Assembly (NCBI GenBank): GCA_951406725.2
Contig: OX597814.1
Location: 22,940,001-23,004,000, forward strand
Source: Octopus vulgaris
Lineage: Eukaryota
DNA length: 64,000 bases
Direction of reading: 5' to 3'
Part shown: positions 16,579-16,745 of the stretch, piece after piece
How positions within the stretch are numbered: position 1 is the stretch's first letter
Layout: the number at the start of each line of letters is the position of its first letter
Notes under the pieces: generated by a model
What the model saw: the letters and a program-made list of their open reading frames with translations, nothing else
Told to the model about the DNA's origin: nothing
Databases searched by the model: none
Made by a program: the position numbers and the translations under genes

Positions 16579-16745
16579 AAGAAATTAAAAAAGGAAAATA
16601 CGCACACTTACATGGTTTTAATATAATTTTTAATATATCGACCGGTTTCGCTATCGCTATTCATGATATTATGTTTAATTTATTTGAATATATATTTTTT
16701 CGTAAGAAGAAATTTGGTCCATGTTGTGTGTGATGAAATTCACGA

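Follow-up and report, generated by a model that had tools for sequence, protein, structure and literature searches.

The window, that is, the whole stretch of 64,000 nucleotides of Octopus vulgaris DNA analysed here (contig OX597814.1), carries a minimal hammerhead motif with an A3:U8 core pair, embedded in a short remnant of a Penelope-like element (PLE) that adjoins (TA)n runs on both sides (Table 1). Two further hammerhead motifs are present, namely, a canonical C3:G8 version associated with a Hydra-like PLE and a G3:C8 version in a separate element that lies head to head with a partner devoid of the core. The ORF of the Hydra-like PLE gave no Pfam match at E 0.1 and was placed by its fit to the description of Hydra-clade PLEs. 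Elsewhere in the window, open frames resembling Helitron-type helicase fragments were recognized by eye in the translations (15-2150, 33550-34420 and 48449-48931), a dispersed repeat of ~240 bp recurs with 91-92% identity at 43842-44080, 51624-51861 and 53806-54044, and a 297-bp inverted repeat (98%) pairs 2737-3033 with 6125-6421.

Table 1. Hammerhead motifs and associated mobile-element features in the window
Feature	Position	Strand	Basis
Minimal type I hammerhead motif with A3:U8 core pair	16635..16669	-	sequence parse, genome matches, fold, covariation
Stem I, 5' strand; pairs with 16635-16639, 5 bp	16665..16669	-	sequence parse and covariation across families
Core A3 U4 G5 A6 A7 U8 A9; A3 = 16664, U8 = 16659	16658..16664	-	
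Stem II, 2 bp, G10.1:C11.1 first, 4-nt loop	16650..16657	-	
G12 A13 A14 at 16647-16649, then 6-nt palindrome A15.1...U16.1 at 16641-16646, predicted intermolecular stem III	16641..16649	-	
C17 of the GUC site; cleavage predicted 3' of C17	16640	-	hammerhead numbering
5'-truncated 3' end (pseudo-LTR region) of Neptune-like PLE, family A; 169 bp, without 3' tail extension	16579..16747	-	
(TA)n run adjoining 3' end of the stub	16566..16578	n/a	
(TA)n run adjoining truncated 5' end	16748..16781	n/a	
Separate element, hammerhead motif with G3:C8 (G3 = 41026); family of ~8,000 copies	40984..41032	-	any-pair descriptor
Core-less partner, head to head with the G3:C8 element	~41045-41163	+	
Separate canonical C3:G8 hammerhead, long stem II, 8-nt palindrome, near 3' end of Hydra-like PLE	14430..14507	+	by eye
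Hydra-like PLE ORF, 731 codons; DKT, RT-like and GIY-YIG-like motifs, CxCX5C linker	10236-12428	+	by eye
Fragments related to the Hydra-like ORF	27077-28552; 4623-5438	-; -	

The letters of the minus strand between 16669 and 16635, together with the hammerhead register proposed for them in the initial annotation, were matched base for base. All positions required in a hammerhead core, U4 G5 A6, A9, G12 A13 A14, A15.1:U16.1 and H17, are present, and the hexamer at 16641-16646 is self-complementary. The literal CUGANGA consensus (C3, G8) is absent, and the Watson-Crick pair required between positions 3 and 8 is provided by A:U. The assignment of the cleavage site to C17 rests on established hammerhead numbering. 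The core pattern matches the window once and was not found in any of 100 shuffles, and a descriptor open to any 3:8 pair yielded two matches in the window versus none in 60 shuffles. A search of Rfam with the region 15000-18500 returned no hammerhead at E up to 10 and only low-complexity, miRNA-type noise.

The motif had been placed in a TA-flanked element of about 170 bp. This unit is real (16579-16747), but it represents only the truncated 3' end of a far longer element. A first look at the 2.8-Gb genome, which is rich in microsatellites, gave 1,590 candidates for the 169-bp unit; 40 were scored and are 93-100% identical to it, and among some copies the homology reaches more than 1.5 kb upstream, into an ORF. 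Longer copies contain an RT domain (PF00078) together with a GIY-YIG domain at the C-terminus (PF01541) in a single ORF, both above the Pfam cut-offs, and the match is colinear over most of a 753-aa sister ORF. In the translations, the two domains are joined by a CX4CxxC linker, within the CX2-5CxxC definition of the PLE zinc finger, and the nearest named protein matches are cephalopod. The motif lies ~270-300 nt behind the ORF in the longer copies, i.e. in the terminal-repeat position of a PLE, so that the link to PLEs, initially an assumption, follows from the RT and GIY-YIG ORF ahead of the motif. Canonical endonuclease-bearing PLEs, as described by Craig et al. (bioRxiv 2021.04.23.441226), combine RT, a CX2-5CxxC linker and C-terminal GIY-YIG with targeting of microsatellites, inverted 5' copies and a one-sided tail. 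Family A, to which the window copy belongs, displays 5' truncation, frequent inverted 5' copies, a one-sided tail (a short extra tail is found on 16 of 33 copies) and microsatellite targets. With the Neptune clade it shares RT, the zinc-finger linker, GIY-YIG, microsatellite targets, inverted 5' copies and the tail, a likeness drawn by description only. Judging from its sequence, the element is an endonuclease-bearing Neptune-like PLE, the clade name being given from domain order and linker, again by description. A non-LTR retrozyme, which would be a head-to-tail tandem array of 150-450-bp units that all bear a hammerhead and lack an ORF, was considered and rejected, as family A is dispersed and ORF-linked. 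Direct repeats on both sides of a full ORF were found in none of seven long copies; the two same-strand pairs encountered are local duplications without a full ORF. Among 139 matches, about half of them belonging to family A, the longest open frames of this family span 635-673 codons, most ORFs are broken and no full-length open family A ORF was found, and family A appears from these sequences to be dead. The window copy is probably an inert by-product of retrotransposition, since it is a solo, 5'-truncated insertion without a partner nearby.

The A3:U8 pair is a fixed property of the family. A 25-nt core pattern has 333 exact matches in the genome and none in the reversed control, and the same pattern with C3:G8 has no match at all. 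Both A3 and U8 are found in 33 of 33 copies that cover the motif at the 30 top BLAST loci. The motif is therefore neither single-copy nor a deviant of a C3/G8 consensus, all 333 exact copies being A3:U8, in agreement with the fixation anticipated for the family, and the counts of 333 and 0, together with the lack of a hammerhead hit in Rfam, bear out the prediction that CUGANGA descriptors miss this variant. A looser pattern with A3 fixed and position 8 free gave 1,751 matches versus 199 in the reversed control, i.e. about 11% chance background; among the first 100 matches listed, 83 have U8 as counted by eye, three are single-change family members and the remainder mostly lack the stems. The variant had been called rare, a description that does not hold for a genome with about 1,500 A3-type matches above background. 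The lower variation within the motif (9/1160 cells) than in its flanks (103/4408) is not counted as evidence, because the copies compared are top BLAST hits. Likewise, four contig sets from four organisms span the motif, and none of the differences listed (40) falls on position 3 or 8; these data were not used as evidence either.

Related PLE families in the same genome display both the same and other 3:8 pairs. Family B has A3:U8 with another stem I and U at position 7 and lies behind a related endonuclease, and family C, whose endonuclease is ~50-60% identical, combines A3:U8 with other stems I and II and with GUA as the cleavage-site triplet, in 155 matches versus 0 in the control. A3:U8 persists among families whose endonucleases diverge by 35-50% and whose flanks cannot be aligned. 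Motifs that share the family A palindrome and lack A3 gave 1,788 matches, against 8 in the control. The sister family D has U3:A8 with the same 2-bp stem II and includes a U3:G8 subfamily; some copies of this wobble subfamily have intact ORFs, and it could be a natural intermediate between U:A and C:G. Protein searches revealed four further PLE families, E, F, G and H, all of which have U3:A8; in three of the four, intact ORFs are numerous. Family F is young and intact, with a ~2-kb 3' non-coding region that is largely microsatellite-like and part of the element, and its hammerhead has a U-U mismatch at 10.1:11.1. In families G and H, the former young and with many intact ORFs, an additional A in the GAAA strand gives an 8-nt palindrome and an ambiguous N17.

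Covariation was followed in an alignment of 18 representatives, hand-picked and mutually related. All five pairs of stem I change on both sides, and 90.7% of the cells are paired, compared with 62.7% in shuffled and 28-42% in slid controls; these percentages are not probabilities, because the rows of the alignment are related. The 10.1:11.1 pair is G-C in 14 of 18 rows, with three of the four misses explained by a one-base alignment shift, and 10.2:11.2 is C-G in families A and B and U-A in family C. Stems I and II thus covary across divergent A3:U8 families, as had been expected. U4, G5, A6, A9, A13, A14 and the region of A15.1:U16.1 show little or no variation, and every one of the 18 representatives has A, C or U at position 17, whereas N7, the loops and the stems drift. 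Positions 3 and 8 are paired in 18 of 18 cases: A-U in eight, U-A in seven, U-G in two and C-G in one. What selection keeps is likely to be the 3:8 pair itself, given that related families in the genome use U-A, C-G or G-C.

The history of the pair was traced on a protein tree that combines 26 natural copies with 7 database proteins (398 columns; 6 rows are less than half filled). The U3:A8 families F and E are outermost, and D lies beside C and the remainder. The U3:A8 families G and H are nested, together with the A3:U8 families A and B, in a clade with 98/99 support. The fewest changes of the 3:8 pair on this tree are two, and the test rejects (p-AU 0.0023) a topology in which the 15 A3:U8 rows form one clade apart from the remaining 11. 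Trees without families E-H had given a single A3:U8 clade with weak support, a result overturned by the addition of more families. One of the two switches may represent an exchange of 3' ends instead of point changes, because the hammerheads of G and H also have an A that those of the A3:U8 families lack, and their stem II is longer. The positions of E, F and D suggest that U3:A8 is likely ancestral. The double change at positions 3 and 8 was initially interpreted as compensatory, and this interpretation is supported: A3:U8 is a family state that is kept with different stems and alternates with U3:A8 on the element tree.

The remaining pair orientations are also represented. In the G3:C8 motif of the window, stem I has 6 bp, stem II has 5 bp and stem III is palindromic; the pattern of this motif has 8,007 matches in the genome (control 3). 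A tighter pattern without G3 matches 163 times, mostly as single changes that retain C8, implying that G3:C8 is fixed. Members of this family are short elements that often lie head to head; 16 of 30 copies carry a tail, and none of 30 loci has an ORF upstream, from which we infer a non-autonomous PLE derivative. A search for its autonomous counterpart yielded none. The window element and its flanking microsatellite (40900-41100) closely match a second site elsewhere on the contig, which suggests that they were duplicated locally. The motifs that share the family A palindrome and lack A3 include, besides family D, retrozyme-like tandem repeats of ~359 bp; these belong to a family other than A, and their type I hammerheads have either C3:G8 or U3:A8. 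The window contains three of the four Watson-Crick 3:8 pairs and the genome all four, since the G3:C8 family and the C3:G8 retrozyme-like repeats join A3:U8 and U3:A8.

According to fold predictions, the monomer cannot close stem III. The MFE structure of two copies is a double hammerhead in which the six palindrome pairs have probabilities of 0.65-0.88 and the stem I pairs fall below 0.5. Folding energy was dropped as evidence: the monomer is no better than its shuffles (z +0.73), and 48% of shuffles are as stable as the dimer. A second, long palindrome, which A3 creates across stem I and the core, outcompetes the hammerhead dimer in the two-copy fold of two minor A3:U8 families; it was rejected as a general explanation, because it is absent in family C. 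Position 8 is described as acting in catalysis through its 2'-OH (PMC6155905), and a base swap that preserves the pair could therefore preserve catalysis. In the mechanism we propose, A3 would pair with U8 as C3 does with G8, the 2'-OH of U8 would serve as the general acid and G12 as the general base, two motifs would assemble into a double hammerhead through the 6-bp intermolecular stem III, and cleavage after GUC would process transcripts of tandem elements. Cutting would probably be slow and helped by the element protein. Metazoan PLE hammerheads are reported to cut weakly and only as dimers (PMC4209133), and one PLE hammerhead is reported to need the element protein, to lose cleavage upon single changes at position 3 or 8, and to be partly rescued by the C3G/G8C double swap (PMC11167929). 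Collectively, the comparative data argue that A3:U8 motifs probably cut tandem element RNA, slowly, while their families were active. Points against cutting include the folding energies, the stem II of only 2 bp and the decay of family A while the U3:A8 families have many intact ORFs.

An alternative is a vestigial ribozyme: the fold would serve the element as a signal for protein binding or reverse transcription, or persist by hitch-hiking, and the A3:U8 motifs would no longer cut at a meaningful rate. The very weak predicted folding and the decayed state of the A3:U8 family examined are compatible with such a scenario, as are the reports that hammerhead cleavage is dispensable for insertion of the same PLE in vitro and that no read ends mapped to the cleavage site (PMC11167929); furthermore, a path from U:A to A:U would pass through a mismatched intermediate, which implies that selection was relaxed at times. 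The conservation of the core positions and of position 17 against drifting N7, loops and stems, and the pairing of 3:8 throughout the representatives, would however be expected of catalysis and not of a generic hairpin, and we regard the loss of meaningful cutting as unlikely. The high copy number in itself reflects amplification of few masters and not independent events, so that a single master copy with two unrelated, coincidentally complementary core mutations might simply have been amplified. Such an accident would hardly account for the persistence of A3:U8 across the divergent endonucleases and non-alignable flanks of its families, for the lack of an abundant mismatched 3:8 class among the matches listed (100 per listing), or for at least two switches on the tree; it is largely refuted and we consider it highly improbable. 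Still less credible is that the copy in the window has been domesticated and works as a ribozyme on a transcript of the host. Its motif is intact and it is 96-99% identical to other copies, but its conservation is no higher than that of its siblings, it is a solo stub with no second copy in the window, the monomer is unable to form stem III, and the recognizable long ORFs of the window are mobile-element fragments. Slow cutting of tandem element RNA by the A3:U8 motifs while their families were active is thus the reading that we prefer.

Minimal hammerheads in the pseudo-LTRs of metazoan PLEs have been described by Cervera and de la Pena (2014, PMC4209133). As presented there, they share with the octopus motif the type I topology, a short stem I, G10.1:C11.1, a palindromic stem III, predicted action as dimers, a site 3' of the RT-EN ORF and occurrence mostly in solo truncated copies and inverted pairs. 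They differ in stem II, which is usually longer than the 2 bp of family A, and in family A position 9 is followed by 10.1 without an inserted base. The 56 representatives in Fig. S3 of that work, collected with a descriptor that required the usual core, include 53 with C3:G8, two with U3:A8, one with U3:G8 and none with A3:U8 or G3:C8. Natural U3:A8 core variants have been published (Perreault et al. 2011, PMC3088659; Schistosoma PLEs, PMC4209133) and likewise represent a natural compensatory change of the 3:8 pair, but, as reported, they are transitions that keep a pyrimidine at 3 and a purine at 8. By contrast, the octopus genome has purine3:pyrimidine8 pairs (A:U and, in a second family, G:C) fixed at copy numbers that range from hundreds to thousands. 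Lunse, Weinberg and Breaker (2017) reported small variants of PLE hammerheads with cleavage as dimers; according to the review PMC6765202, through which we compare them, these are also very short, PLE-associated and equipped with a palindromic stem III, and they may include A3:U8. Within the readable literature, we found no natural A3:U8 or G3:C8 hammerhead, and for cephalopod hammerheads the Naiad paper alone. Palindromic A3:U8 motifs in metagenomes, at 120 loci, were attributed to chance, as only four passed a crude stem filter and the best of these falls within bacterial coding sequence, with no PLE protein match. A scan of viral sequences with one narrow A3:U8 pattern gave three loci; judged by eye, stems I and III are convincing at none of them. 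Overall, PLE hammerheads and natural U3:A8 are already known, and the fixed A3:U8 and G3:C8 families are new within the readable literature.

The chemistry itself is unsurprising, because engineered swaps of the pair are known to work. Przybilski and Hammann reportedly introduced such swaps in 2007, with A3:U8 cleaving in vitro. Cleavage in vitro is supported by an engineered G:C pair as well (PMC11167929), and in both cases the molecules are laboratory mutants and not natural families. Tentatively, and with slightly less than even confidence, we propose that retroelement ribozymes of this genome, abundant and working, have each of the four Watson-Crick 3:8 pairs fixed in them, with a U:G wobble subfamily in addition, a natural saturation experiment that would include ~1,500 A3:U8 and 8,000 G3:C8 copies missed by standard descriptors and Rfam. 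If so, purine3:pyrimidine8 hammerheads would constitute a class that is large and hidden, and such versions may be present in some of the PLE lineages described as hammerhead-less. In this one genome, about 10,000 candidate ribozymes escape searches based on CUGANGA. Furthermore, the tree provides evolutionary evidence, as opposed to isolated hits, that the constraint on positions 3 and 8 acts on their pairing rather than on C and G as such. Finally, natural sisters matched in stem II and palindrome, one with U:A and the other with A:U, would make it possible to ask whether hammerhead cleavage matters for the retrotransposition of PLEs.
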